Assembly: GCA_045533905.1 (NCBI GenBank)
Contig: JAZSIR010000001.1
Coordinates: 81,982-145,981, forward strand
Direction: 5' to 3'
Source: Clostridia bacterium
GTDB lineage: Bacteria > Bacillota > Clostridia > UMGS1883 > UMGS1540
Length of the DNA stretch: 64,000 bases
Both the position numbers and the translations under genes were made by a program. Under the pieces are notes generated by a model, which made no database searches, was not told where the DNA came from, and saw nothing but the letters and a program-made list of their open reading frames with translations. Positions 1,459 to 45,100 of the stretch are shown here, piece by piece. How positions within the stretch are numbered: the first letter of the stretch is position 1; every line of letters starts with the position of its first letter.

Positions 1459-2213
1459 CTCTCTATCCCCTTCGCGCAGTATTCTGCAGGGGCGCCTTTC
1501 CCCCGTTCTATGATGCCTGCACGTATGCATCTCAGTTCTTTTTCCCGATATGCAGGCTTTGCCCACCGCACGGCGTTCTGAATCACCTTCTGAATTTCCG
1601 GCTGATGGTAAATGGGATATTCCTCGTGGCCGGGCTGAAAATAGAATATCTTCCCTCGGCCTCTTTGATACACACAGCCCGAGCGGAAAATCTCGCCGCT
1701 TTCGTACCAGGCAACCATTAAAAGATTGTCCGGTACCGGCACCCCGAAGGGCTCGCTGTACATTTCCTCCCTGGGGATTTCAAAATATGCGGGAAGCCCC
1801 ATTGTAATGGGATGGTCGCGGTCAAGAATCCAGACGCGCTCAAATTCCCCGCCGTCACGCCACGAAAGATTGCAGGATGTGCCCATCAGAAGTTTGAAGG
1901 GCTTCGACAGATGTGCCGAGTGGAGAAAAATAGCGCCCATTCCGCGGAGAACCGCTTCCTGCACCATTTTAGCGACCTCGTCCGGCACCTTCTGATACGC
2001 CTCGTGTCCCCACCAGATCAAAACATCGGTTTCCTCGAGGATTTCGGGTGTAATACCGCAGTTTTCATCGTCTAAAGTTGCCGTTTTTACGCGAATATCG
2101 TCGCACTGCAAAAAGTTTTTTATGGTCGTATGAATCCCTTCGGGATAAATGGCCTGTACCTTTTCTTCCCGTCTCTCGTGAATGTTTTCATTCCACACCA
2201 AAACACGAATCAT
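1455..2213 (-). CDS. ThuA-domain (trehalose utilisation, class I GATase-like) protein
   Basis: RVLVWNE..HE, YPEGIH, DVLIWWGH, LHSAH, FYFQPGHE. Confidence 0.92.
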   Translation of the reverse strand: MIRVLVWNENIHERREEKVQAIYPEGIHTTIKNFLQCDDIRVKTATLDDENCGITPEILEETDVLIWWGHEAYQKVPDEVAKMVQEAVLRGMGAIFLHSAHLSKPFKLLMGTSCNLSWRDGGEFERVWILDRDHPITMGLPAYFEIPREEMYSEPFGVPVPDNLLMVAWYESGEIFRSGCVYQRGRGKIFYFQPGHEEYPIYHQPEIQKVIQNAVRWAKPAYREKELRCIRAGIIERGKGAPAEYCAKGIER

Positions 2214-2279
2214 TTTCTTCTCTCCTTTATGCGGGCAAAATCTCCCCCCCCACGTCAAAGTAAAAGCAAAACCGTGGGC

Positions 2280-3185
2280 TCAGAAAATAGTCAGCCGCAC
2301 AACCTCACCTTTATTGCGGGTGCGGAGATGCCCACACTCGATGTACTCGCGGAAGGCGGACGGAATGAAGCTGTTGTCTCCCGGTTCGAAGGCTCTGAGG
2401 CGCTCTCTTGCAATCTCCTTGATTTCGTCTGCCGATTTGCCAAGTGCATAGCCTTCAAAATAGGTGGTGCAAAGCTCTACATAGTTCAGTTTTTTGTTTT
2501 TCTTCTCGGCATCATATCTCTTTTTATTCCAGTCCTCAAACACAAAGGGCGTATCAAAATCACATTCGGCAATCTCCCCGATTTCCTTCAGGAAAATCTG
2601 TGCCATCACGTGATAGCCGTAGTCTGTAGGATGGGTACGGTCGGGCTGTATAATCTCTGCTTTCCCGAGAAGCGGAAGCAGATGATCCTTAAAGTTTACA
2701 ACGCGGCAGCCGTACTTTTCGGCCATTTCAAGCTGAAACGCGCACGCTCTCTCAAGGGCGGCCTGGTAGCATTTCTTTTCGGTGCCCGCTTCGGAAACTT
2801 CATCGTACGGCGTGGGCAGGCATATAATAACCTCCGCGCCCGCATTTTTGCAGCTATGGATAATTTCTTCATACGCACCTTTATGGCGCAAAAACCAGCT
2901 TTCCCGTGCCTCGGCTTCTTCATGGCTTTGCGGCGCGGCCGTTTTGTAGAGGTCTACATTCATATCGTTCATACCGAGCATCAAAACCACATAATCAGGA
3001 TTATGGATAAGGCATTCCGTATGCATATATCCACGCACCTTGTCGGCAATGCTCCCGGAAACGCCGCAGTTATAACACTTTATCTTATACTTTTTCCGCA
3101 AAGTCTGGTAGACCTCTGCTTCCCAAAGCCCTTCAGCGGTGATACTGTCGCCAAGAAAACAAATAACATCTCTGTCCTTAAACAT
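2280..3185 (-). CDS. SGNH/GDSL hydrolase
   Basis: FLGDSIT, NCGVSG, LGMND, DRTHP. Confidence 0.9.
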   Translation of the reverse strand: MFKDRDVICFLGDSITAEGLWEAEVYQTLRKKYKIKCYNCGVSGSIADKVRGYMHTECLIHNPDYVVLMLGMNDMNVDLYKTAAPQSHEEAEARESWFLRHKGAYEEIIHSCKNAGAEVIICLPTPYDEVSEAGTEKKCYQAALERACAFQLEMAEKYGCRVVNFKDHLLPLLGKAEIIQPDRTHPTDYGYHVMAQIFLKEIGEIAECDFDTPFVFEDWNKKRYDAEKKNKKLNYVELCTTYFEGYALGKSADEIKEIARERLRAFEPGDNSFIPSAFREYIECGHLRTRNKGEVVRLTIF

Positions 3186-3201
3186 TTTTTTCTCTCCTTT
3201 T

Positions 3202-4203
3202 CTACATAAGTCCCATACACCAGATGACAACGAGTGCCGTAAGCGTTACAAGCGTATCAATGGTGATTCCGTAAAACATCGGCGCAAGGCCTGCCTTCTT
3301 AAAATCGGCAATGCTTGTGCCAAGGCCGATGGCCGCCAGTGCCGTCACCATCAGAAACTTACTTGCGCTCTTCATAAGGCCTGAAAGTTCTGCAGGAATC
3401 ATACCGACACTGTTTGCAACCGCAAGCGCCAGAAAGCCGCCGATGAACCAGGGGATGATTTTCATAAGATTGACCTTTTTGCCACCGCTTTCGGCTTGGA
3501 GTTCTTTCTGCTTTATACGGGTGCCGATATAGGCAAACACCAAAACGGTGGGAATGATGGCGATTGTGCGGGTGAGCTTCACCATCGTGGCAAAATCGCC
3601 TGCGGCCTCCGAAAATGCATAGCCGGAGGCAACCACGCTTGCCGTGTCATTTACCGATGTGCCTGCCCAGATGCCATAGGCAATATCGCTCATACCGAGA
3701 ACTTTTCCCATAATCGGATACAGGGCAATCATCACCATATCGAAGAGAAAAGTAGAGGATAGTGCAAAGGCGATATCCTTATCGTCGGCGTCAATGACGG
3801 GGGCAATCGCCGCCACCGCAGAGCCGCCACAGATGCCTGTCCCTGCCGAAATCAAATTGCCGAGCTTCCAGTTGAGCCCGAAGAGCCTGCGGACAAAATA
3901 GCCGCCACCGAAGCACATTGCAAAGGTAAACAGCATTACGAAAAAAGTCATTTTGCCGACAGACATAATCGTACCGACAGAAAGGGATGCGCCGAGAAGG
4001 ATGATGGCACCTTTCAAGATTCTTTTAGAGGTGAATTTGAGCGCCGGCTTTATCCAGTCCGGATGGAAAAAGCTATTGAGGATCGTGCCCATAAACAGGG
4101 CAATGATGGATGCGCCAAGAAGCTCGCCCGGAATGATGCGCTCGAGCCAGATGGATAAAACTGCAACCAGCATACAGATTGCAATCCCCGAGATAACTAC
4201 CAT
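3202..4203 (-). CDS. YeiH-family (putative sulfate exporter, UPF0324) membrane protein
   Basis: GTGICGGSAVAA, GIWAGTSVND, KLTR motifs; multiple TM helices. Confidence 0.9.
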   Translation of the reverse strand: MVVISGIAICMLVAVLSIWLERIIPGELLGASIIALFMGTILNSFFHPDWIKPALKFTSKRILKGAIILLGASLSVGTIMSVGKMTFFVMLFTFAMCFGGGYFVRRLFGLNWKLGNLISAGTGICGGSAVAAIAPVIDADDKDIAFALSSTFLFDMVMIALYPIMGKVLGMSDIAYGIWAGTSVNDTASVVASGYAFSEAAGDFATMVKLTRTIAIIPTVLVFAYIGTRIKQKELQAESGGKKVNLMKIIPWFIGGFLALAVANSVGMIPAELSGLMKSASKFLMVTALAAIGLGTSIADFKKAGLAPMFYGITIDTLVTLTALVVIWCMGLM

Positions 4204-4250: not shown

Positions 4251-4445
4251 TCATATGCATATAAATCTTTTACTTCTGCATACATCATTTTTGAAAAGCT
4301 CTGCTCTTATAAACCGATACAGTTTAGACCGCAAGCCTTGCGCCGGCGACCATAATATATATGTACCGGAATAAACGGAAATGGCATTTGCCATATCTGC
4401 CGCCAGATATACGCCTGCGGCACCGCTCCATCCGAAATAGACATC
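4251..4445 (-). pseudogene. 3' remnant of a beta-lactamase-family serine hydrolase, truncated at junction repeat
   Basis: Manual translation DVYFGWSGAAGVYLAADMANAISVY...SPAQGLRSKLY...stop; same FGWSGA.G motif as intact 7973-9097 gene; no start codon. Confidence 0.65.
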
Positions 4446-4523
4446 CTTTATATAAAGACTGTATAATCTGGATGCCGGTCTTTTTAGCTGCGGTTGTTAC
4501 TACAACCACATTAGGTGTAAACT
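4446..4523. repeat. Junction site A (31 bp CTTTATATAAAGACTGTATAATCTGGATGCC) plus tail and degenerate second unit
   Basis: 4446-4476 identical to 6549-6579; near-identical to 22524-22548; tail GTCTTTTTAGC shared with 7148-7158. Confidence 0.9.
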
Positions 4524-6525
4524 ATAGTTTGCCCAATATTTTTATTGCATAATATAACGCCCAGTCCTGATCGTTCGCAAAGCTATCATATTTATGACCT
4601 GATGCGACACCCGGTCTCATATGTGCGTTCTCATATCCTGCTACGGAAGAATACTGCATTACCTTATACGGAACCAGATATCCGGCAGAAGCAAAACCAT
4701 TTTCGAAATAAACGCAAAGATTGTTCTTTACTACAGCCTCCGCATACTCCCTATACGCACTTTCAAATCCACACTTATATAGGAAATCATATGTTTCAGC
4801 AGACAATGCACATAGCCATTGGGGCATAGTATCACCATAAGTTTTGCTTTTCCCAAACCAATACAAATCCCAGTAGCGAACAGCATTCATATTTACGTGA
4901 TAATCAGGTTGCCTTGCAAAAAACGCATTTGATTTTTCGATGAATCCTGGTGCCATTTCAAGATATTTTTTATCACCTGAAAGCATATATGCCTGACACA
5001 AAATATTCACTTTGCCATTGAACATAAACTGCGTACATTTCACTTCTTCAGAAAAACATTTACTGCCGTCTCTTATAATTCTTTCTGCGTGAACAAGGGT
5101 ATGATGTATAAGTCTTTCCCTGAGTTCATGCAAGCCTTCTGCCTGAAGTAATTCGCATATTTCGTATGTTCTTATGCATGGGGATTCCTGCTCTCCTCCC
5201 CGTACCTTTTCATAATACGAAACCATAGTACGCGCAGAAATTTCAAGACATTCCTTTTCTTTTGTAAGCAAATACCATTCAAGATAATACACAGCCATCC
5301 ACGGATAATTATATGCACGCTTCCATTTATCATCGCGATTTACGCCGTTGTATACGGTTGCAGTGTCTTTATCAAAAATTTCCCTTTCAATGAACCTTCG
5401 GTGTTTAATCAAGGATTTCATCATAGTTTCATCGTATCTTTTTTGCAAAGCCTGTGCCACTACAACCCCCATTGACAATCTTTCACGGCACGCATTGTTG
5501 TCCTGAAAACACTCATCATAATATAGCTTGTCTGTGTCTCTGTCATAAATAAGGTATGCACCGTCAAGACAACTCCCCGATCTGTGATATTGTTGTTTTG
5601 TTGTGATAAACTCAGCTCTTTTTATAACAATTTCATCAAGCGGTAATAATATATTTATTTTTAACCATAATAATTTACCATTTACCGACAAATAAATCGT
5701 TCTTTCTCCAGGAGTCTTGAAGGAATGTGTCCATTTTGCTTTGTTTCCGAATTTAGTGTACTTTATTTCTTTATCTTCACATACAATTTTCAAATCATCC
5801 CAACAATCAAGACTATCAAACTCGCATTCAACAGCTTCGTCTATAAAAGCACTGTATTTATTTGCAATTATTTTCATCCTGGAAAACTCATTCAATATTC
5901 CCTCGTCCGGAGCTATATTGTCGAAACGAAATACAAATGACAAAGTTATACTTTCTCCCGGTGCAACTACAATATCACCCGGATGCAACACTATATCACC
6001 ACGGTAACTCGCGCCTACCTTTACGCGGCTCACATCGTAGCTGATGCTGTAATCAGCTATTCCTCCTTTGACTATGTTACATACAAGGTAAGGTTTTATA
6101 CCGCTCGGTTTCGCTGAATACATCCACGCGCCATCTCCACCACACCAGACGTGTGTTATGCACGAATTATTATGCAAATTGGTTTTGTTCTCAAATGTAC
6201 AGTTATAAGGAAAGTGTATTCCCAGATTATCTTTTGTAAAAAAGTATTCAGAGCAATTATTATTTGTTATGCAGTAGCACTCTGTATATATCCCGTTTTT
6301 TACTCTTTTATTAACACATAATTCGAGCGATTGATTTTCCGAATACACATCAATACCATCTTCTGCATTCATTACCCGATAATTCTCAAAGCCGATAACC
6401 TTTCCCCAATCTGAATTTTCTAAAATCCAGTTAAATCCATATTCATCATCCGGATTATATATCGCTGTGGTATAGCCATTAACTTCATCGAATGCAACAC
6501 AAATTTTACCATCATTATACTTCAT
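4522..6525 (-). CDS. Six-hairpin glycosidase-like hypothetical protein (AT-rich cassette)
   Basis: 667 aa; N..RERL.MG, R.YNYPW, RYWD.YWFGK...YGDT.P, ANDQDWALY motifs. Confidence 0.7.
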   Translation of the reverse strand: MKYNDGKICVAFDEVNGYTTAIYNPDDEYGFNWILENSDWGKVIGFENYRVMNAEDGIDVYSENQSLELCVNKRVKNGIYTECYCITNNNCSEYFFTKDNLGIHFPYNCTFENKTNLHNNSCITHVWCGGDGAWMYSAKPSGIKPYLVCNIVKGGIADYSISYDVSRVKVGASYRGDIVLHPGDIVVAPGESITLSFVFRFDNIAPDEGILNEFSRMKIIANKYSAFIDEAVECEFDSLDCWDDLKIVCEDKEIKYTKFGNKAKWTHSFKTPGERTIYLSVNGKLLWLKINILLPLDEIVIKRAEFITTKQQYHRSGSCLDGAYLIYDRDTDKLYYDECFQDNNACRERLSMGVVVAQALQKRYDETMMKSLIKHRRFIEREIFDKDTATVYNGVNRDDKWKRAYNYPWMAVYYLEWYLLTKEKECLEISARTMVSYYEKVRGGEQESPCIRTYEICELLQAEGLHELRERLIHHTLVHAERIIRDGSKCFSEEVKCTQFMFNGKVNILCQAYMLSGDKKYLEMAPGFIEKSNAFFARQPDYHVNMNAVRYWDLYWFGKSKTYGDTMPQWLCALSAETYDFLYKCGFESAYREYAEAVVKNNLCVYFENGFASAGYLVPYKVMQYSSVAGYENAHMRPGVASGHKYDSFANDQDWALYYAIKILGKL

Positions 6526-6548
6526 ATCTATACACTCCTTTTGAAATT

Positions 6549-6619
6549 CTTTATATAAAGACTGTATAATCTGGATGCCACTTTTTATGTTTATTGCGAC
6601 ACATAAGGTTTAGATGCAA
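6549..6619. repeat. Tandem junction sites B (6549-6579) and C (6593-6619)
   Basis: B identical to 4446-4476; C ATTGCGACACATAAGGTTTAGATGCAA nearly identical to 7121-7147 and 7165-7191. Confidence 0.9.
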
Positions 6620-6627
6620 CTTTTCAA

Positions 6628-6688
6628 AGGCTCCCTTGAGGCTCCCTTGTGTAAAGGGAGCTGTCAGCGAAGCTGACTGAGGGATTGT
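6628..6688. repeat. REP-like double hairpin (left copy) with 11 bp tandem duplication
   Basis: GCTCCCTT-gtgta-AAGGGAGC and GTCAGC-gaa-GCTGAC hairpins; inverted homolog of 7035-7088; AGGCTCCCTTG duplicated. Confidence 0.85.
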
Positions 6689-7032
6689 TTCACTACATTA
6701 TCTATAAACATACAAACTCCATCAAAGTTTTTCAAAACATCAAGATTTGATATTCGGATAACTTTTATCCCATATTGTTCTAAATAAGCAGTTCTTTTTT
6801 CATCATTGAAAAGCCCGTCATCTTCGTAGTGTTGCGAACCATCTAACTCTATAACAACATTTGCTTTTGCGCAATAGAAGTCTGCTATATATTTACCTAA
6901 CACCTTTTGCCTTGTAAACTTTATAGGATAACTTCTTAAAAAATCATACCAAAGATGTCTTTCTTCTTTAGTCATATTTTTTCTAAGTTCCTTTGCAAAT
7001 GGAACTATTTTATTATTATGTTTTCTATCCAT
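6664..7032 (-). CDS. DUF559 / Vsr-like PD-(D/E)xK endonuclease
   Basis: AKELRKNMTKEE..LW, F.RQ...G.YIADFYC, IELDGSQH, D..R..YL...GI.VIR..N. Confidence 0.92.
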   Translation of the reverse strand: MDRKHNNKIVPFAKELRKNMTKEERHLWYDFLRSYPIKFTRQKVLGKYIADFYCAKANVVIELDGSQHYEDDGLFNDEKRTAYLEQYGIKVIRISNLDVLKNFDGVCMFIDNVVKQSLSQLR

Positions 7033-7034
7033 TT

Positions 7035-7088
7035 ACAACCCCTCCGAGTTTGCTTCGCAAACTCACCTCCCCTTGCACAGGGGAGGCT
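7035..7088. repeat. REP-like double hairpin (right copy, inverted)
   Basis: GAGTTTGC-ttc-GCAAACTC and CCTCCCCT-tgcac-AGGGGAGG hairpins. Confidence 0.85.
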
Positions 7089-7096
7089 TTTTCCTT

Positions 7097-7113
7097 TTCG
7101 TCATATTTCGACA
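7097..7113 (-). promoter_or_regulatory. Tandem Spo0A boxes (TGNCGAA x2)
   Basis: Minus strand TGTCGAA-ata-TGACGAA upstream of DUF559 gene. Confidence 0.55.
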
Positions 7114-7120
7114 TCTTTAC

Positions 7121-7226
7121 ATTGCGAGGCATAAGGTTTAGATGCAAGTCTTTTTAGCATAGCGAATGCGACATATAAGGTTTAGATGCAAACCTTTTTG
7201 GTGGCTGTTAATATCAAGACATATAA
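7121..7226. repeat. Tandem junction sites D (7121-7147), E (7165-7191) and partial F
   Basis: Core ATAAGGTTTAGATGCAA repeated at 44 bp period; GACATATAA recurs at about 7218-7226. Confidence 0.88.
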
Positions 7227-7238
7227 ATAAATTGGAAT

Positions 7239-7889
7239 TTACTTAACTGCCTTTAGCGTATAAGTTGCTCCCCAATGGTTCAAAACTTCGACCGCAGAAA
7301 ACCCTGCTTCAAGTAATGCTTCCGTTTCATGCTTTACGGTAAGAGGTGTATCGTAATGATAGAATTCATCATCACAAATACCTTGTTCTGCTTTCAATGC
7401 TGACAAATTCCGTCTGTGCATCTGTTCTTCTTCATCGGATAATGAAAAATAATCCGTAAGGATAAAACATCCCTTATCCTTTATTGCCGTATGTAGTTTA
7501 GAGTATAACGCAATCTTTGCTTCTTTTCTGAAATGATGCAGACTCTCCACCGATACCGCTGCATCGAATACGTTCTCGCCCAAAGGCACATTAAAATACG
7601 AGCCGAGTATCAAGGTTATATCCTTGCCCACGAATTTACGCTTGAGTTCGGCTAACATTCCTTGCGAGAGGTCAATTCCTGTAACCTTTGCTAACGGATT
7701 CTGCGTATAGTATTCTTGAAGTTCTAATCCCGTGCCACAGCCCAAATCAAGCACGTGGCAGTTTTCAGTGGTCGGCAATTGTTTTGCTGTAAAGGGATAG
7801 AATTCGTTTGCGGATTCGATGTTGGTCATCATATGCTCATCGTATCCATCAAGTCTTGCTTCAAAAAAATCGCTCATTTTTTCAAGCAT
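7239..7889 (-). CDS. Class I SAM-dependent methyltransferase
   Basis: VLDLGCGTG, GIDLS..ML, FDAAVS..SLHH. Confidence 0.92.
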   Translation of the reverse strand: MLEKMSDFFEARLDGYDEHMMTNIESANEFYPFTAKQLPTTENCHVLDLGCGTGLELQEYYTQNPLAKVTGIDLSQGMLAELKRKFVGKDITLILGSYFNVPLGENVFDAAVSVESLHHFRKEAKIALYSKLHTAIKDKGCFILTDYFSLSDEEEQMHRRNLSALKAEQGICDDEFYHYDTPLTVKHETEALLEAGFSAVEVLNHWGATYTLKAVK

Positions 7890-7920
7890 ACATAACCTCC
7901 TACAAATTCTTATTTATCTG

Positions 7921-7937
7921 TTCGACATTTTTCGACA
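7921..7937 (-). promoter_or_regulatory. Tandem Spo0A boxes (TGTCGAA x2)
   Basis: Minus strand TGTCGAA-aaa-TGTCGAA, 32 bp upstream of methyltransferase ATG. Confidence 0.6.
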
Positions 7938-7972
7938 TATCAATAATACTTGCGTTAAGTTAATGGCAAAAA

Positions 7973-9097
7973 TCAATATATCATTGCATTAAATACAGCC
8001 TCTTCAAATCGACGTGCTGAACTATTTCCTGCTCCTCCATCAAATCTGGAGTTTTTCATAAATACTGCGCAAATATCATTTTTAGGATCTACCCAAAAGT
8101 GAGATCCATAAGCTCCACTCCACCCAAAACTTCCAACAGATAAATGCGGATATTCCTCATCCGTGATAACACGCACACCTAACCCCCATTTTTGATAGCC
8201 CGGCATAATTTTTTCCGACACATAGGCTTTTGAAAGCTTGTTGATTGCCTGTTCAGATACAATTCGATTATTGTTTATTTCCCCTTTATTTAAAAGCATT
8301 TGTGCAAAGTTTGAATAATCATCTAGTGTGGACACCAATCCGGCACCTGCAAGCCTGTGTTCACAAGGAAATCTTTCAAACACACACCCGGAATAAGTTA
8401 TACCAATATCATTTTTTTCATCAACTTTGTTATGCATCATCATAAGCTGTTTCCATTGTTTTTCCGTTGGTGAAAAAGTTGTGTTTAACATATTGCACGG
8501 AACAAAAATTTCATTTTTCAAAAAAGTTTCATAGTCTTGTTTTGTTACATATTCAACAATCGCCGCAAGCACATCAAAAGCGGCAAACGCACTATATGCT
8601 TGCTTTGTAAATGGTTCAAAATCCAGTCCTGCGTTTATATAACACTTTACTGTATTTGAAATAGTTTCCCTATCATCCTCAGACATAGCAATAATCTTAT
8701 CACTACCAAATCCGGATGTATGTGTCAAGCAATGTAAAATTGTTACCGGTGTTTTTGTTTTTCCTAAATCTGCGCCATCGGAAGTTATAACATGTATATC
8801 TTCAAATTCAGGGATATATTTACTAACAGGTTCATCAAGAGAAATCAATCCTCTATCAACCAAAATCAGTATTGCCACTGCTGTTATTGGTTTTGTCATC
8901 GAAGCAAGACGATATATCGTGGTGTCATCCACCTGTTCTTTACCATCAATGCTTGTATGCCCAAAATGTTTCTTCAATACCACTTCGCCATTCTGATATA
9001 CAAAATAAGATGATCCAAACAAATTATTGTTTGTTAAATCAAATGTTGCAATTTTCTCAACATTGTGTTTGAGTTTTTCTTTGTTCAACAGTCTCAT
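7973..9097 (-). CDS. Serine hydrolase, beta-lactamase/class C-like family (cytoplasmic, likely esterase)
   Basis: ASMTK (SxxK), LTHTSG, YS, GAGLVST, FGWSGAYG; no signal peptide. Confidence 0.9.
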   Translation of the reverse strand: MRLLNKEKLKHNVEKIATFDLTNNNLFGSSYFVYQNGEVVLKKHFGHTSIDGKEQVDDTTIYRLASMTKPITAVAILILVDRGLISLDEPVSKYIPEFEDIHVITSDGADLGKTKTPVTILHCLTHTSGFGSDKIIAMSEDDRETISNTVKCYINAGLDFEPFTKQAYSAFAAFDVLAAIVEYVTKQDYETFLKNEIFVPCNMLNTTFSPTEKQWKQLMMMHNKVDEKNDIGITYSGCVFERFPCEHRLAGAGLVSTLDDYSNFAQMLLNKGEINNNRIVSEQAINKLSKAYVSEKIMPGYQKWGLGVRVITDEEYPHLSVGSFGWSGAYGSHFWVDPKNDICAVFMKNSRFDGGAGNSSARRFEEAVFNAMIY

Positions 9098-9200
9098 GTT
9101 TTGTTTCTCCTTTTATTTACTAAAAAATGTTGTTAATAGTTCATATAAACTTATGTCTAAAAAATGTATAAACAAATTTTAAGTTATCTCCGGACATCTA

Positions 9201-10049
9201 TCAATACAGCCCCACATCCACAAAAACCGGCGAATGATCAGACAAAGGTAGGTAATAATCCGGGGTATACCGTTCAAAACGATGCACAAAACCTGCCGGT
9301 GAAAATTTCACCATAATATGATCTATTCCTTTTTCAAACGGTGCTCTCACATAAGGCTTGTAGCCATCGCCAAAACAATAGTGGTAGCCCCAATCCTGGT
9401 CAGCAAAATCCGTGGCAATATCGTGGGCGTGTGCATAACCTCTGCTTAGCGCATTTTGAATTACAGAGCTTGTGTATCTTGCGTTAAAATCGCCCACCAA
9501 AACCACAGGACAGTTGTATATGTTATGAAATTTCTCCAGACGGTCCATTGCCATGTTCAGTTGGTAAACTCTCGCCTCATCAGAACCTGCCTGATAGTTT
9601 TTTGAATCAGAACTACCACTCATCCACCAAAGATGGGTAGTCATAAAAACAAGCTTTTTCCCGTCTGTTTTATCTTGAAACACAGCACAGCACCATGATT
9701 TTGTTCCGTTGTTGTTGAATTCGCCATCCCAGCCCGGAACTTCCGTAGGGTACATCAAAAAATCAGAATCCAACAGCTCCAGTCGCTCCTGACGATACAG
9801 TACCGGAGTATCTTTACCCCACAGCAAGGCATAACAATACCCCTGCTCCAACAGCCCCTGAATAATATGATCAGACATAACATGTGACATTTCTTGGAAA
9901 CCAATGATGTCGGGCTGTGTATCAGCATAAACCCGTACCATCCCCTTTGCCCTTGCAATCGCAGAACAATCTTCTCCTTTTATTTCCCATGCAGGGAGAT
10001 TGTTGTCACACTTCCAAACATTGTGACTCATAATACGCAACTTCCCCAT
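9201..10049 (-). CDS. Endonuclease/exonuclease/phosphatase (EEP) family protein
   Basis: MSHNV, DIIGFQE, TH, GDFN, IDHI, SDHSPV. Confidence 0.92.
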   Translation of the reverse strand: MGKLRIMSHNVWKCDNNLPAWEIKGEDCSAIARAKGMVRVYADTQPDIIGFQEMSHVMSDHIIQGLLEQGYCYALLWGKDTPVLYRQERLELLDSDFLMYPTEVPGWDGEFNNNGTKSWCCAVFQDKTDGKKLVFMTTHLWWMSGSSDSKNYQAGSDEARVYQLNMAMDRLEKFHNIYNCPVVLVGDFNARYTSSVIQNALSRGYAHAHDIATDFADQDWGYHYCFGDGYKPYVRAPFEKGIDHIMVKFSPAGFVHRFERYTPDYYLPLSDHSPVFVDVGLY

Positions 10050-10129
10050 AAAAATTCCTCCAATAATTTTTTGATATGTGTAAAAAAACACTTTGACTTT
10101 CAATATATTTTGATATATTCACTCTATAA

Positions 10130-10144
10130 ACTCGTGTTAAGTCA
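10130..10144. repeat. Junction site ACTCGTGTTAAGTCA
   Basis: 14/15 identical to 44012-44026. Confidence 0.7.
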
Positions 10145-10157
10145 AAAGCGAAAAACA

Positions 10158-10277: not shown

Positions 10278-12302
10278 TCAGCTAATAACAGCTTTTTTCA
10301 AAACAACAACTCCATAAGGTTTTATCATTTCTTCTTCGAAATTGCCGCTTATAATTTCATAACCGGCTGGCAAATTCACCTTCTTTTCCTCATTATTGAA
10401 ATTCATAATAAAAATGTAATTATTGTTTGAGGAATAGCGCATTGTTACGCTTACATTTTCAGGCGTTTCGAAAACCTTATCAGCTGATATAATGTCCTTA
10501 AGCCATTCTTTATACAATTTTATATACCCATCAGTCATTAAATCCGTAGCTATGTAATATGCCTTACCTTTGCCATATTCATTTACTGTTACGGCAGGCA
10601 TATCTTTATAAAAATCTTCACAGTATTTTCCTATTACCGTCGCTCCTTCGAGGTATGCAAGCTCGCAATATTTCTCACTTCGGTATGACGTACCAAACAT
10701 TTTGACAAAATTATACTGACCGTCATACAGCGAATCCGTTTCCTCCGTCTTTACACCAAGTAATTTTCGCAAAGGATAACACTCTTTATCAAAAAAGCTC
10801 AGACCATATTCATCCACAACGCCTGTTCCGAAAGTGGTTACAAAAATCCCGCCGTTTTTTACATAATCCTCGATTTTTTCTTTCAGACCATTTTTTAACA
10901 TAAAAAGCATCGGTGCAATGACAACTTTATATTTCGAGAAATCGTCATTTTCAAAAACAAAATCACAGCCTATATTAAGCTGCCACAATGCTCCGTAGTT
11001 TTTCATAAGAGTATCTGAATATCCTTTATCCTCGTCTATATTTCTGTATGCCTGCGAAATTCTCAAACTCCAGAAACTGTCGTAATCGAACAGAATCGCC
11101 ACTTCATTTCGTGTAAGTGAACTTGCAATTTCTCCAATGTTTTTGAGCTCTTCTCCCACCTCTGCAACTTCTCTGAATACTCTCGTATCCTCACTGTTAT
11201 CATGCCCGACAACAGCACCGTGGAACTGCTCGGACTGGCCTCTGCTTTTTCTCCACTGGAAATACTGAACGGTATTGCTGCCATGAGCAACCGCCTGCAT
11301 CGATGCCAAAAGGTGCATGCCCGGGCGTCTTAACCTTGAAACCGCCTGCCAGTTTGTTGCAGAAGGTGAGCTTTCCATCAACATAAACGGCTTATCCTTT
11401 TTAAATGAGTTGAACAGCGAATGAAACAATGCAGTTTCAGCTGCCTCTTTGTATTCGTTATCACTTGAATGCCATGCCGGGTAATTATCCCAAGATATAA
11501 CATCTATGCTTTTTGAAAGCTTGGCATAGTCAATTTCCCAGAATCTCATAAAATTCGTCGTAACGGGAATATCCGGATTTATTCTCTTTACTGCAGCTGC
11601 TTCGCAGTCAAGAAAATCCTGCAGCATAGAATTTTTAAACCTGACCCACTCCAGTTTAAGAGGATTGGAAGAATTTTCTCCGTGTTGCCCCGGAGGCTCA
11701 ATCTGCGAAAAGCTCTGATATGTATGCGACCAAAACCCATTCCACCATTTTTCATTAAGGCTATCTATGGTTTTATACTTATTTTCAAGCCATTTTCTGA
11801 AATTTTCACAGCACAACGGGCAATGGCAATCCCGTACATTATATTCATTGGAAATATGCCACATCAAAATACCCGGATGATTTGAATATCTTTCAGCAAG
11901 CTTTGTGTTGATTATTCTCACTTTTTCTCTGTATACAGGCGATGAATAGCAGTTGTTGTGACGGTTTCCGAATCTGTCTCTTATTCCGTCCTCCTGCACA
12001 CGTTTTACTTCCGGATATTTTTCAGCCATCCATGCAGGCATTGCACCGGACGGTGTCGCAAGTATTGTATATATACCGTTTTCATAAAGAGTATCTATAA
12101 TTTTATCAAGCCATTCGAATTCAAAAACGCCTTCCTTCGGCTCAAGCCTGGACCATGCAAAAATCCCTACCGACATAACATTACAGCCGGACTTTTTCAT
12201 CAGCTCAATATCCTTTTCAAGAACTTCAGGATAACTGAGCCATTGGTCAGGGTTATAATCACAACCGTGCCATATACCTCTTAATTTTTGATTAATGTTC
12301 AT
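10278..12302 (-). CDS. Beta-galactosidase, GH42
   Basis: GCDYNPDQW, FAWSRLEP.EG, WHISNEY, LMESSPS, EQFHGAVV. Confidence 0.95.
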   Translation of the reverse strand: MNINQKLRGIWHGCDYNPDQWLSYPEVLEKDIELMKKSGCNVMSVGIFAWSRLEPKEGVFEFEWLDKIIDTLYENGIYTILATPSGAMPAWMAEKYPEVKRVQEDGIRDRFGNRHNNCYSSPVYREKVRIINTKLAERYSNHPGILMWHISNEYNVRDCHCPLCCENFRKWLENKYKTIDSLNEKWWNGFWSHTYQSFSQIEPPGQHGENSSNPLKLEWVRFKNSMLQDFLDCEAAAVKRINPDIPVTTNFMRFWEIDYAKLSKSIDVISWDNYPAWHSSDNEYKEAAETALFHSLFNSFKKDKPFMLMESSPSATNWQAVSRLRRPGMHLLASMQAVAHGSNTVQYFQWRKSRGQSEQFHGAVVGHDNSEDTRVFREVAEVGEELKNIGEIASSLTRNEVAILFDYDSFWSLRISQAYRNIDEDKGYSDTLMKNYGALWQLNIGCDFVFENDDFSKYKVVIAPMLFMLKNGLKEKIEDYVKNGGIFVTTFGTGVVDEYGLSFFDKECYPLRKLLGVKTEETDSLYDGQYNFVKMFGTSYRSEKYCELAYLEGATVIGKYCEDFYKDMPAVTVNEYGKGKAYYIATDLMTDGYIKLYKEWLKDIISADKVFETPENVSVTMRYSSNNNYIFIMNFNNEEKKVNLPAGYEIISGNFEEEMIKPYGVVVLKKAVIS

Positions 12303-12426
12303 AAGTAGCACCTCATCCTATTATTTATAAATATGTTTTATGTAATTAAGCGACAACTACGTCACCATAAATTCTCGTTGCCGTAAGTCTCTTATCAAGT
12401 CAAGAGCAAAATCTAACTGCCCCAAA

Positions 12427-22523: not shown

Positions 22524-22562
22524 ATATAAAGACTGTATAATCTAGATGACAATCTTTTTAGC
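22524..22562. repeat. Junction site G
   Basis: ATATAAAGACTGTATAATCTAGATG (1 mismatch to sites A/B) + TCTTTTTAGC tail; marks GC-to-AT boundary. Confidence 0.88.
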
Positions 22563-22568
22563 AAGATT

Positions 22569-22790
22569 TCGTGTCAAGTCAGGCGAACAGTGAATAATAG
22601 GACCTACTACTTTTCCCTTAAATTTTCACTGTATTTTTTCTGAACAAAATCCATCAGAACCCGCAGGAATGTTAAATTTTCCTGCTCCGATAGTATATGT
22701 AAATATTTAAAATCGGCAAACTACCATATTTAATTATATTGATTTGCACAAGCAAAAACATAATAGAATAACCTACCATGTTTGCAAAAA
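22569..22790. mobile_element. Non-coding repeated element (MITE-like), shorter copy
   Basis: Colinear with 44012-44317; starts TCGTGTCAAGTCAGG; right IR degenerate; lacks ~70 bp internal segment. Confidence 0.75.
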
Positions 22791-22806
22791 AATACGTTTT
22801 TTGAAG

Positions 22807-24552
22807 TTATACGGCTCCTAAATCAGGTTTATCAACAAACAAAACCTCTTGTTTTCCCTTTATGCCATCTGATTCAAATAAAACTATTTCATTTTCTCCT
22901 TTTTTTAATACCGAAGCGGGAACATACAAGGTTTTCTGCGGTCCTTTGTCCCAATATCTGCCAAGATTAAAACCATTTATCATTACAAAACCTTTAGTAA
23001 AATTTTCTGTATTTAAGAATGTATCGCATGGAACATCAACTTCAAACACTCCTCTATAAAACGCAGATGGTTCTTCCACTACATCTTTGGAATACAAAAC
23101 ATGGTCTATATTCTCCATAGGCAATGGATACACATCCCAGTTGAAATGAATTTTTCCATTTAGCATACATCTGCCGGCTATACCTTTTTTACGACTCATT
23201 TTAGGTCCAAAATTTGTTCTGCCCATATTTTCACAAAGAACTGTGAGCACATCCCCACGACTTGCTGTAATCTCAATTTTTAATTCTTCATCATTTATAT
23301 AAACAATCCCAACAAGGTTTCTATTAATATAAATCTGTGCTCTGTCACCAAGACTTTCAAACTCTAATTTTGCACCTTTATAATCACGATTCAACCGTGT
23401 GCAATATGCAACATATCCATATCCTTGTCCGTATTTTTCCATACACTTGGGAACTTCAGAATGTATTGGAGAAGAAAGTCTTTCTAGATTATCAAAAATA
23501 CCTCCTACTTCCGTAAGCTCTACCTTTCCGTATTCTTTTTTAGGTCTGTTCGGCGGAACTTCCGGAAGAACTCCGTCAATATATTTTTTCACCACATCAC
23601 GGACTGCATAATATTTAGGAGTAACATCTCCACATTCAGATAATAGTGCATCATAATCATAACTTGTCACATCAGGAGCAAACTTTTCATAATGATTTGC
23701 TCCGCTTGTAAATCCAAAATTTGTTCCACCTATGAACATATACATATTGAGGCTTCCCTTTTTAAGCATATCTTCTACAACTTCTGCATACTTTTCTGCA
23801 GATGTGCAATGATGTTTTTCATCTCCCCAGGCATCAAACCAACCACACCACATTTCCATACACATTTTAGGCGCATCGGGAAAAAGTTCATCATGAGCCA
23901 TAAAATTTTCTTCAACACGACTGCCGAAATTAAGCGTAGCAAAGCAACCTTCTATCATTCCGTCTAAAAGGCTTTCTTTTGAACTGCCATCTGAAGTAAA
24001 AAGTGGAATGTCTATTTCCTGTTCCCGGTAAAAATCACACAAATACTTAAGATATTCCTTATCGTCACCATAGTAACCATATTCGTTTTCACACTGCATC
24101 ATTATAACAGGGCCACCATTTGTACACAGATACGGTCTTACCTCGTCAAATAGCTTCTTAAGATAATTGCTGAAACACTTTATATAATACGGATTGGAAC
24201 AACGTATTTCCATTTCTTCATTTTCCTGTATCCACCAGGGCAATCCGCCGAATTCCCATTCCGCGCAGATATATGGTCCCGGGCGTACGATAACCATAAG
24301 TCCCTCTTCACCTGCTTTTTTGATAAAATCTGATATATTGAGATTTCCTGAAAAATCAAATTCTCCTTGCTTTTTTTCATGCATATTCCATGCGCAGTAT
24401 GTTTCAACACAGTTACAACCCAAGGCTTTCATTTTTTTGAAAATATCAGTCCATGTGTCAGACATATTGCGGAAATAATGTACAGCACCTGATATTATCT
24501 TTATAGGTTTCCCATCCCTATAAAACTGATTACCTTTAATCTCAAAAACCAT
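22807..24552 (-). CDS. Beta-galactosidase, GH35 (AT-rich cassette)
   Basis: SGAVHYFR, RPGPYICAEWEFGGLP.W, ENEYG, YMFIGGTNFG, TSYDYDA. Confidence 0.95.
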   Translation of the reverse strand: MVFEIKGNQFYRDGKPIKIISGAVHYFRNMSDTWTDIFKKMKALGCNCVETYCAWNMHEKKQGEFDFSGNLNISDFIKKAGEEGLMVIVRPGPYICAEWEFGGLPWWIQENEEMEIRCSNPYYIKCFSNYLKKLFDEVRPYLCTNGGPVIMMQCENEYGYYGDDKEYLKYLCDFYREQEIDIPLFTSDGSSKESLLDGMIEGCFATLNFGSRVEENFMAHDELFPDAPKMCMEMWCGWFDAWGDEKHHCTSAEKYAEVVEDMLKKGSLNMYMFIGGTNFGFTSGANHYEKFAPDVTSYDYDALLSECGDVTPKYYAVRDVVKKYIDGVLPEVPPNRPKKEYGKVELTEVGGIFDNLERLSSPIHSEVPKCMEKYGQGYGYVAYCTRLNRDYKGAKLEFESLGDRAQIYINRNLVGIVYINDEELKIEITASRGDVLTVLCENMGRTNFGPKMSRKKGIAGRCMLNGKIHFNWDVYPLPMENIDHVLYSKDVVEEPSAFYRGVFEVDVPCDTFLNTENFTKGFVMINGFNLGRYWDKGPQKTLYVPASVLKKGENEIVLFESDGIKGKQEVLFVDKPDLGAV

Positions 24553-24689
24553 AATTTTGTCTCCTATCTTAAATCAACTATCATTTCAAATATTAAAATT
24601 TAACATAACTCACTCTTGGCTCATGTCAATTCAGGAGTAAAAAATCATATAATCATTATTCAAAAGTTATCGTTTACAAGCTATTCAAA

Positions 24690-25196
24690 TTACACGATTT
24701 CTATTTGCACTGCCTTCATAGCCTCAAGTGCTGTTTTGTGACTTTCGACACTAACTCCTGCACAGCACTTGCCATCAACAACTATTTTTGTTTCAGGAAA
24801 GCTCGCTTTTAATATCATAGCGTTTGAAATTACGCAAATATCTGTACACAATCCGCACAATTCTATTTCATCTATCTCATCGCCATAATCTTTCAGTATT
24901 CCTGGCAAATCGACACTTCCAAATGTAATTTTATTAACAACATCATTAGCATAAGCCTTAAGTTCATCACAAATCTGCCAACCATCAGTATCTTTAATAC
25001 AATGCTCTACCGGAAGATTTTTGCCTTCCTGTGTCTTCATATAGTCTTCAAAATGTGTATCTCTTGTAAATATAATTTTACCATCAAAATTTTTAACCTT
25101 TTCAACTACATCCGGCACAATTTTCTCAGCAAGCACACTACCCAGACTGCCTGTTATAAAATCATTTTGCATATCAACTACAATTAAATACTTCAT
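24690..25196 (-). CDS. Isochorismatase-family cysteine hydrolase (nicotinamidase-like)
   Basis: VVDMQNDF, TRDTH, HC, K.TFG, GLCTDICV. Confidence 0.92.
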   Translation of the reverse strand: MKYLIVVDMQNDFITGSLGSVLAEKIVPDVVEKVKNFDGKIIFTRDTHFEDYMKTQEGKNLPVEHCIKDTDGWQICDELKAYANDVVNKITFGSVDLPGILKDYGDEIDEIELCGLCTDICVISNAMILKASFPETKIVVDGKCCAGVSVESHKTALEAMKAVQIEIV

Positions 25197-25292
25197 TTTC
25201 TTCTCTCCTTTTTAGGATATAATCCGAGTTATCCAAACATCAAGTTACGAATAAAATCCAAGAAACGTATTCTGTATACGGGCAGGAAGTCT

Positions 25293-43969: not shown

Positions 43970-44011
43970 AGTTCTACTTCCTATGCTCTTTTGCGGCAAC
44001 TTATGCGTTAG

Positions 44012-44317
44012 ACTCGTGTCAAGTCAGGAGAACAGTGAATAATAAGAACCATCACGAAATATAACGAAATCAAAGATTTCTATATTTCGGAGAACCTTGA
44101 TACTCGCAAGCTCGTATTAGGACCTACTAACTTTTCCCTATTTTTTCAACTGTTTTTCTTTTAACACTTTTCCTTAGAACCCGCGAGAATACTGGATTTT
44201 CTCGCTCCCGATAGTATATATAAATATTTAAAATCGTCAAACTAATCTTTTAAATTGTATGGACTTGACACGAGTAATTCTATTCCCAAACAACATAACC
44301 GTACCTTTGTTTCAAAT
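44012..44317. mobile_element. Non-coding repeated element (MITE-like) with 14 bp perfect inverted repeats
   Basis: ACTCGTGTCAAGTC (44012-44025) / GACTTGACACGAGT (44262-44275); homologous to 22569-22790. Confidence 0.8.
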
Positions 44318-45071: not shown

Positions 45072-45100
45072 TTCGACACAATTCGACTTTTGTCAAGTCG
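45072..45100 (-). promoter_or_regulatory. Tandem Spo0A-like boxes overlapping junction site / -35 hexamer
   Basis: Minus strand GACTTGACA-aa-AGTCGAA-ttg-TGTCGAA. Confidence 0.5.

Follow-up and report, generated by a model that had tools for sequence, protein, structure and literature searches.

Polar arrays of single-gene cassettes with a two-base-pair core in gut Clostridia, and a sigma-tailed large serine recombinase as their probable motor

Tandem repeats of about 40-44 bp that share a GATG(C) motif lie between positions 4,446 and 7,226 of a 64,000-nucleotide stretch of a Clostridia bacterium genome (GCA_045533905.1, contig JAZSIR010000001.1, positions 81,982 to 145,981; this whole stretch is called the window below), and several described systems offer a comparison. 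Integrons use the recombinase IntI and the sites attI and attC, the latter being inverted repeats of variable length that fold as single-strand hairpins. Composite staphylococcal cassette chromosome islands (SCC, SCCmec), which include ccr-less pseudo-SCC units, grow by tandem accretion at reused att sites with serine recombinases acting in trans, and the pdif modules of Acinetobacter depend on XerC/D and on sites of 11-6-11 dif geometry. Accretion is also seen in cis-mobilisable elements (CIME; PMC5704250), and Tn4451 of Clostridia has the large serine recombinase TnpX, 2-bp identical sequences and low target specificity (PMC5704250); the multi-targeting clade containing TndX carries DUF4368 in 63% (Durrant et al., PMC10083194). 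The serine integrases of phages A118/LI, SPbeta and phiC31 act on arms of about 25 bp with a central dinucleotide and a distal motif at about 16-24 (PMC3783163, PMC5499577); in an attP half-site the zinc-ribbon motif lies at positions 16-24 (Rutherford et al., PMC3783163).

We conclude with high confidence that the repeats are the junctions of mobile cassettes, which are widespread and have a 2-bp core. The reading that we favour, with a probability of roughly 0.78, is one of non-autonomous single-gene cassettes with core TA or AT, for whose movement a sigma-tailed large serine recombinase, acting in trans, is likely responsible. As in integrons, closely framed cassettes of one open reading frame (ORF) and of mixed function stand in polar arrays and are shuffled between genomes; unlike in integrons, no IntI or other tyrosine recombinase was found near the sites, the core is of 2 bp, there is no fixed platform, and the recombinase lies inside a cassette-like module. 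The arms are of fixed length and conserved in sequence. As in SCC and CIME, autonomous and recombinase-less units accrete in tandem at reused att sites, but unlike SCC they do so at many unrelated loci and not at a fixed rlmH, as tightly trimmed units of 0.2-2.3 kb with mostly one gene. As with pdif, gene modules lie between short recombination sites and would be moved in trans; unlike pdif, there is no 11-6-11 dif geometry, polarity is strict and the core is of 2 bp. In the literature covered, as listings and opening lines of abstracts (most subscription papers and the supplementary tables of PMC10083194, which could list the enzyme, lay outside it), neither the sites nor arrays of this kind nor a serine recombinase fused to a sigma domain were found described; on the reading that we favour, this would be an integron-like gene-swapping system that is apparently undescribed so far.

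The sites stand where a preliminary description had placed them: type 1 at 4446 (A), 6549 (B) and 22524 (G), and type 2 at 6593 (C), 7121 (D) and 7165 (E). A and B are identical over 31 bp (4446-4476, 6549-6579), as a direct repeat on either side of a 667-aa ORF, and each opens with the same 12-bp palindrome. The window thus has three matches to each type, compared to 0 in 100 shuffles each. Its source genome (G000; 1.57 Mb, 23 contigs, 49% GC) holds twelve copies on four contigs, six of type 1 and six of type 2 with one hybrid among the latter, and the reversed-sequence control gave 0 and 0. With an 18-mer and one mismatch allowed, type 1 was found in 26/58 other genomes of the window's order and in 78/239 of a second order (controls 0); this, together with the recovery of the letters of the D/E tandem junction in contigs from two public runs, rules out an assembly artefact. 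The exact type-1 24-mer occurs in 133 stretches of the species-representative collection, with about 320 estimated, in records whose titles name mostly Clostridia and animal guts. Plasmids that were searched gave no site match, and protein matches there were all below 60%; a merged degenerate site pattern gave zero matches and is uninformative. Two short contigs with clostridial cassettes (L035, L071) belong to records titled Alphaproteobacteria and are probably mis-binned. The tail TCTTTTTAGC does follow A, G and D, as had been reported; because it is near the family consensus, it is weak evidence for the reassortment of halves that had been read from it.

Alignment of the sites in their contexts resolved four parts. 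On the + strand of the window a junction consists of a left arm followed by a right arm. The right arm is C1 (type 1), C2 (type 2) or R, the last with a consensus around TGTCAAGTTAGG plus an A run; the left arm is L, with two spaced TTCGACA-like motifs, or the T-rich spacer M that comes after a C arm, or unrelated sequence. L and R are additional to the halves described before, and at least five types of arm occur. The order within a cassette is C arm, spacer M, R arm, a gene that runs on the opposite strand, and L arm, the stop codon lying against R and the ribosome-binding site within L. In 68/95 cases 20-45 bp separate the stop codon from the M x R junction (29 at +28/29), and 71/167 L arms have a Shine-Dalgarno-like motif at a distance of 23-26 bp from the junction. 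No locus out of 79 has sites on both strands; the nearest ORF is on the strand opposite to the site in 129/145 cases on the left and 137/142 on the right, and R arms lie 230 times on the same strand and 4 times on the opposite one. Arrays of at least six cassettes exist (L045); a divergent 667-aa ORF that closes this array was considered as an integrase and rejected, being the host phosphodiesterase GdpP.

Cargo is very mixed and includes hydrolases, transporters, toxin-antitoxin and immunity-like genes. A Pfam scan of 128 site-adjacent or array proteins (118 of the 120 right-hand neighbours, two being on the other strand, and 10 further proteins) gave no recombinase and no transposase. Genes in cassette position at L098 (3770-4564) and L087 (4342-4617) resemble an aminoglycoside 3-N-acetyltransferase and the YafQ toxin. 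At many loci DUF559 genes and several ORF-less palindromic elements begin 9-13 bases past GATG, within spacer M.

The place of exchange was sought in 190 cassettes with both ends, among which 10 families had near-identical copies in other contexts. At the right edge, 21 pairs with different right neighbours had an identity of 0.95 at +1 and +2 and of 0.48 at +3, although the pairs are not independent and 10 of them come from one cassette, which counts against the strength of this result; the profile is not built in, because the first four positions were masked in the profiles. At the left edge, 18 pairs with different left neighbours had an identity of 0.33 at -1 and 1.00 at +1, a profile that is partly built in because cassettes were defined by the C arm. 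The same ends were seen in five contexts for a 1,136-bp cassette with a yeiH gene, at 99.4-99.9% pairwise identity. These breakpoints in near-identical cassettes support the earlier proposal that the units are products of site-specific recombination bounding mobile units. They do not support a crossover in or near GATGC, since the overlap with the flanks is two bases at the left edge of the units as first drawn, about 20 bp left of GATG.

The core is TA in 90/91 L x C1 and 54/61 L x R junctions, and AT in 23/25 M x C2 junctions. The two ends of a cassette agree on it in 151/187 cases (shuffle mean 108.9), in 74/88 where the right arm is R (shuffle 53.1) and in 37/43 of a hold-out of loci fetched later (shuffle 24.1); kin are included in all three counts, which are therefore not independent. 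About this core L and C1 form inverted repeats, so that, as in the att sites of large serine recombinases, a central dinucleotide stands on the dyad axis and is repeated at both ends of the element. C1 and C2 have TAGATGC in common at arm positions 17-23, with GATG at 19-22, and by analogy GATG is probably the distal zinc-ribbon motif of the C arm. A shared core of 2 bp about 20 bp from GATG therefore fits a serine and not a tyrosine recombinase.

A scan of recombinase loci for the arms led to a 533-aa large serine recombinase in genome G067, 85% identical to one already adjoining sites in G454; in both genomes the upstream ORF consists of a recombinase domain only. A search with the C-terminal part found the enzyme in 2/87 genomes of the window's order, the new one (G057) lying inside an array, and in 6/239 of the second order; other samples gave 0/399 (three candidates scored per genome), 0/14 and 0/5. 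One public run (X1) has the module on a 5.5-kb contig at about 97%. In six genomes (G067, G057, G454, G715, G704, G682) the module ends at a junction, its L-type arm being joined to R or C2; the close second-order matches in G715 and G704 and the remnant in G682 have the same L-type arm in the same register. Four of these six junction-linked modules were found by protein search and not by their site. On this sequence evidence the sigma-fused serine recombinase is probably the motor of the cassettes.

The other three second-order matches are distant relatives (53-61% identical). They too have the arm, which TG joins to the 3' end of tRNA-Arg, of tRNA-Asn and of a CCA-ending sequence, the target in G539, which has no tRNA or Rfam match. 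The modules concerned, at L323 (G639:C41), L322 (G716:C8) and L324 (G539:C15), are joined at the CA of the tRNA 3' end. At G639 the distal motif is seen in the same register in six left arms, five of them with core TG. The close three are in genomes with type-1 sites and the distant three in genomes without. In a tree the cassette-linked enzymes form one clade (96/95), made up of an AT-ended pair and a TA-ended trio; the base of the tree is not resolved, and it is therefore only compatible with tRNA targeting as the older state. At L289 (6320-6380), L304 and L320 the 3' end of the recombinase gene has a sigma-70 promoter close to consensus and directed towards the cargo; there the homology of the modules ends just past the -10 box and the cargo differs in each copy, with 26-32% GC where measured.

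The enzyme has catalytic, recombinase and zinc-ribbon domains, intact by Pfam in 16/16 aligned rows, in all of which the catalytic motif is invariant. After the zinc ribbon there is a closing hairpin at about 395-405 and then, directly, the sigma-2 region, with no long coiled coil apparent. The last 129 aa match region 2 of ECF sigma factors (SigY, E 2e-9; SigW, 1e-7) over regions 2.1-2.4; Pfam Sigma70_r2 was found in 16/16 rows at E up to 0.05 (best 1e-6), and the C-terminal part had weak sigma matches in PDB. Among 1.84 billion representatives the enzyme makes up one 50%-identity cluster plus fragments. It resembles the phage serine integrases, as the sources cited above present them, in its domains and in its arms of about 25 bp with central dinucleotide and distal motif; unlike them it has no apparent coiled coil, at least five arm types and no prophage context, the type-1 site having 0 matches in viral contigs and a related pattern 1. 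With Tn4451/TnpX and the TndX clade it shares the large serine recombinase, the 2-bp core, low target specificity and Clostridia as hosts. Unlike these, the enzyme apparently lacks a coiled coil, has an ECF sigma region-2 tail, a partner of recombinase domain only and no DUF4368 match (none in 16/16 at E 0.05, though the domain is not a strict criterion), and its elements are mostly cassettes of one gene that lack a recombinase, contain an internal site and stand in polar arrays, with no mobilisation genes seen. Against Ccr models it scored far below the cut-offs (CcrB 109 of 900 bits). An integrase without its coiled coil turns promiscuous, according to Gupta et al. (PMC5499577), and by analogy its apparent lack here would fit a repeated use of more than one type of junction.

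The 40-44-bp tandem units are real, whereas their description as 'empty' is better replaced by one of nested insertions. Internal M x R sites have core TA in 2/133 and AT in 22/133, and accordingly C2 follows M 25 times and C1 once. When the window is read as nested, five of five pairs of ends match: A with B (TA), B with 10127 (TA), C with D (AT), D with 9136 (AT) and E with 7945 (AA); B and D would therefore be stubs with displaced genes. Furthermore, in the contigs of four public gut runs from four studies the cargo genes are present and the left host flank is absent (depth 0 at 2600-2933); breaks fall at a start of 9136 in 4/4 runs, at an end of 10124-10128 in three and at a start of 7945 in one, and window units are joined in other orders. 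Gaps in the coverage of the window by these contigs were not counted as absence. Pairs of empty and filled sites were obtained elsewhere (L078/L071, L097/L205, L210/L331); other rows, L045/L046 (twice, same contig) and L099/L079, were set aside as motif-only matches.

In the mechanism that we propose, excision would join L to C in a circle, which would integrate at a junction with the same core, be it L x R, unrelated sequence joined to C, or an internal M x R. Arrays would grow by accretion and nesting, the 40-44-bp tandem units being C-M stubs whose genes have been pushed rightwards. Type 1 with TA (enzymes of the G454/G715 kind) and type 2 with AT (those of the G067/G057 kind) may belong to two recombinase lineages that are 85% identical, and the lack of a coiled coil may make the reaction poorly directional.

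Several observations weigh against the reading of cassettes moved by the sigma-fused enzyme. The ends are discordant in 36/187 cassettes, and 25/81 pairs with the same left side differ at the core. A conserved R variant follows L far oftener than nesting can account for. The contigs of the public runs (contigs only) yielded no excised circle, and the search of relatives yielded no empty allele of this window at base level: in four genomes the LOG orthologues have no site and no base-level synteny either, and other probes gave the cyclase in 1/21 and yeiH homologues without a site in five relatives. As to circles, L035 and L071 were rejected, having no terminal repeat and no 1,136-bp periodicity; none of 15 metagenome matches has terminal repeats, and 4/15, without another arm, look like chance matches. 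Joints that 'go back' at the DUF559 cassette are ambiguous because tandem copies yield an identical joint. The fold model of the enzyme is weak (mean pLDDT 61.8), and the missing coiled coil therefore rests on sequence and predicted secondary structure; with this model Foldseek returned only serine recombinases.

Other such points concern the choice of motor. The enzyme is rare, at about 2% of genomes, while the sites are common, with roughly one third to one half of genomes having them, and the assembly of G000 gave no match to it, so that action in trans or in the past has to be assumed. G000 has four ordinary large serine recombinases, and in L052, L216 and L342 enzymes of the ordinary kind, or fragments, are likewise close to sites. 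It could be, then, that the same cassettes and core are served by a common clostridial serine recombinase, for example of the three-gene modules, and that the sigma-fused enzyme is itself captured cargo. We consider this unlikely, though it is the best of the alternatives. Resolvase-domain loci were compared, 29 in five site-rich genomes and 4 in G000, and a strong arm in cassette position was seen at the sigma-fused enzyme alone, two others having weak R-variant matches; moreover, the L-type arm and the distal motif are kept with the enzyme down to 53-61% identity, even at tRNA targets in genomes without type-1 sites, which would be unexpected of cargo.

Alternatively, R may be the terminal inverted repeat of a DDE-type family of insertion sequences or of miniature inverted-repeat transposable elements, a second machinery having built part of the arrays. 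At 44009-44277 lies an ORF-less 270-bp unit that has an R arm as its start and an inverted copy, of 14 bp, as its other end, with relatives in about ten loci; in the empty/filled pair L174/L164 the break falls within a 16-bp repeat of R and not at the core. Both speak for this reading. The near-uniform strand of the R arms, the want of a target duplication above 2 bp in recurrent cassettes and the lack of a transposase among the scanned proteins argue against it, and we hold it to be decidedly unlikely. Units of this kind were also observed at 22564-22755 of the window, at about 1670-1980 of G000:C18 and in L290, L169 and L174, and a further R arm at 45083 closes the gene behind the 270-bp unit. 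Y1 transposases were rejected as motor, their four loci, in three of five genomes, having no arms.

A tyrosine recombinase with its crossover in or near GATGC, as the preliminary description had suggested, is now very improbable. The same palindromic inserts and similar T-rich tails do follow both type 1 and type 2, and CACATAA is common to type 2 and to inverted sites beside a short tyrosine recombinase of G000. However, homology breaks at a core of 2 bp, where Xer/dif-like sites would have a shared overlap of 6-8 bp, C-M-R travels intact with the 3' end of the gene, and the tails are consensus-like. With the tyrosine recombinases of G000 as queries, none was found in the 588 ORFs close to sites or in the 342 of the large regions; conversely, 30 tyrosine-recombinase loci in five site-rich genomes have no type-1 or type-2 arm and one weak R match. 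The short enzyme itself (281 aa; L003 1195-2300, G000:C11 ~2158-3260) was rejected as motor, as it has its own inverted sites and no family arms; the two sites that follow it, about 230 bp apart, are inverted palindromes of the form CACATAA, 6 bp, TTATGTG, and may form an invertible switch. Finally, that the motifs are promoters or operators which travel with horizontally acquired genes and have no part in recombination is scarcely credible, for although A and B each give an 11/12 sigma-70 match on the + strand (4438-4467, 6541-6570, across the core and antisense to the cassette genes) and sites lie upstream of co-oriented genes, cassette ends are base-exact in many contexts, the 2-bp cores match, cassettes nest and sites stand at both ends of genes.

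The reading of cassettes moved by the sigma-tailed recombinase is applied to the window in Table 1. Its array extends beyond the units first noted to about 12,400 and takes in a methyltransferase gene, a hydrolase of beta-lactamase fold, an endonuclease/exonuclease/phosphatase (EEP) gene and a GH42 gene; these segments have 35-41% GC, compared to 49% for the genome. The palindromic blocks beside the DUF559 gene lie at 6626-6688 and 7037-7092, and the left one is very common by itself in public contigs, with summed depths of thousands. Short AAATT-containing motifs at 7221-7242 and 7899-7917 flank the methyltransferase gene inside its cassette and are possibly a second site family. To the left of A, a yeiH gene (3202-4203) is host-like and not framed by arms; the gene carried by the most mobile cassette, that of 1,136 bp, is homologous to it.

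Table 1. Features of the cassette arrays, in coordinates of the window
Feature	Position	Strand	Remarks
Site A, C1 arm, left array end	4451..4479	+	core TA 4451-4452
Cargo ORF, 667 aa	4522..6525	-	no Pfam/NCBIfam family; 82 homologues; A-B segment 37% GC vs 49% genome
Site B, C1 arm + T-rich spacer M	6554..6592	+	core TA 6554-6555; closes A cassette, would open putative B cassette
Site C, C2 arm	6593..6620	+	core AT 6593-6594; putative insertion into internal site of B
DUF559 ORF (6664-7032) between two GC-rich palindromic blocks, cargo of C cassette	6626..7092	-	
L arm, right end of C cassette	7094..7120	+	profile score 29
Site D, C2 arm + spacer M	7121..7164	+	core AT
Site E, C2 arm + spacer M	7165..7204	+	core AA; putative insertion into internal site of D
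Unit F, degenerate R arm at 3' end of methyltransferase gene	7205..7233	+	placed by register, below profile threshold
S-adenosylmethionine-dependent methyltransferase, cargo of E cassette	7239..7889	-	contig of run X4 spans 7175-7941 elsewhere
L-like arm + R arm	7918..7973	+	core AA 7945-7946, matches E; run X1 contig starts at 7945
Serine hydrolase, beta-lactamase fold, putative cargo of D cassette	7973..9097	-	below every named beta-lactamase cut-off
R arm	9136..9164	+	core AT, matches D; contig pieces start at 9136 in 4/4 runs
EEP gene, putative cargo of B cassette	9201..10103	-	
R arm	10127..10155	+	core TA, matches B; contig pieces end at 10124-10128 in 3/4 runs
GH42 beta-galactosidase, probable cargo	10278..12311	-	39% GC
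R arm, right edge of low-GC run	12385..12413	+	
Second array	22525..25258	+	site G (C1, TA), R 22564, GH35, R 24616, isochorismatase, weak R-like 25230 (TA)

The outermost junction of an array lies upstream of a co-oriented gene in 32/38 cases, some of which genes may be old cassettes. A -10-like hexamer stands at the expected offset in 10/137 flanks, compared to about 3 elsewhere, and this signal is too weak for a targeting of host -35/-10 boxes, which was rejected. That the enzyme targets promoters is thus speculation. A broader idea, which we put forward tentatively and regard as doubtful, is that of a 'serine integron', in which a serine recombinase devoid of a coiled coil, having acquired the sigma-2 domain, would use RNA polymerase or melted promoter DNA in the choice of target, with a shift from tRNA 3' ends to places upstream of transcribed genes; naked ORFs would be captured between arms, with L supplying the ribosome-binding site, and a pool of cassettes would be shared across orders of herbivore-gut Clostridia. 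If true, integron-like cassettes would have arisen a second time, independently, and with an enzyme that can be identified.

The boundaries of the cassettes, their polarity, the 2-bp core, the matching cores at both ends and the recurrence in many contexts are seen directly in the alignments. They point to a widespread route for the exchange of single genes in uncultured gut Clostridia of two orders. With sites, core and enzyme named, the activity of the enzyme, its directionality without a coiled coil, its targeting and the birth of the trimmed cassettes become directly testable.

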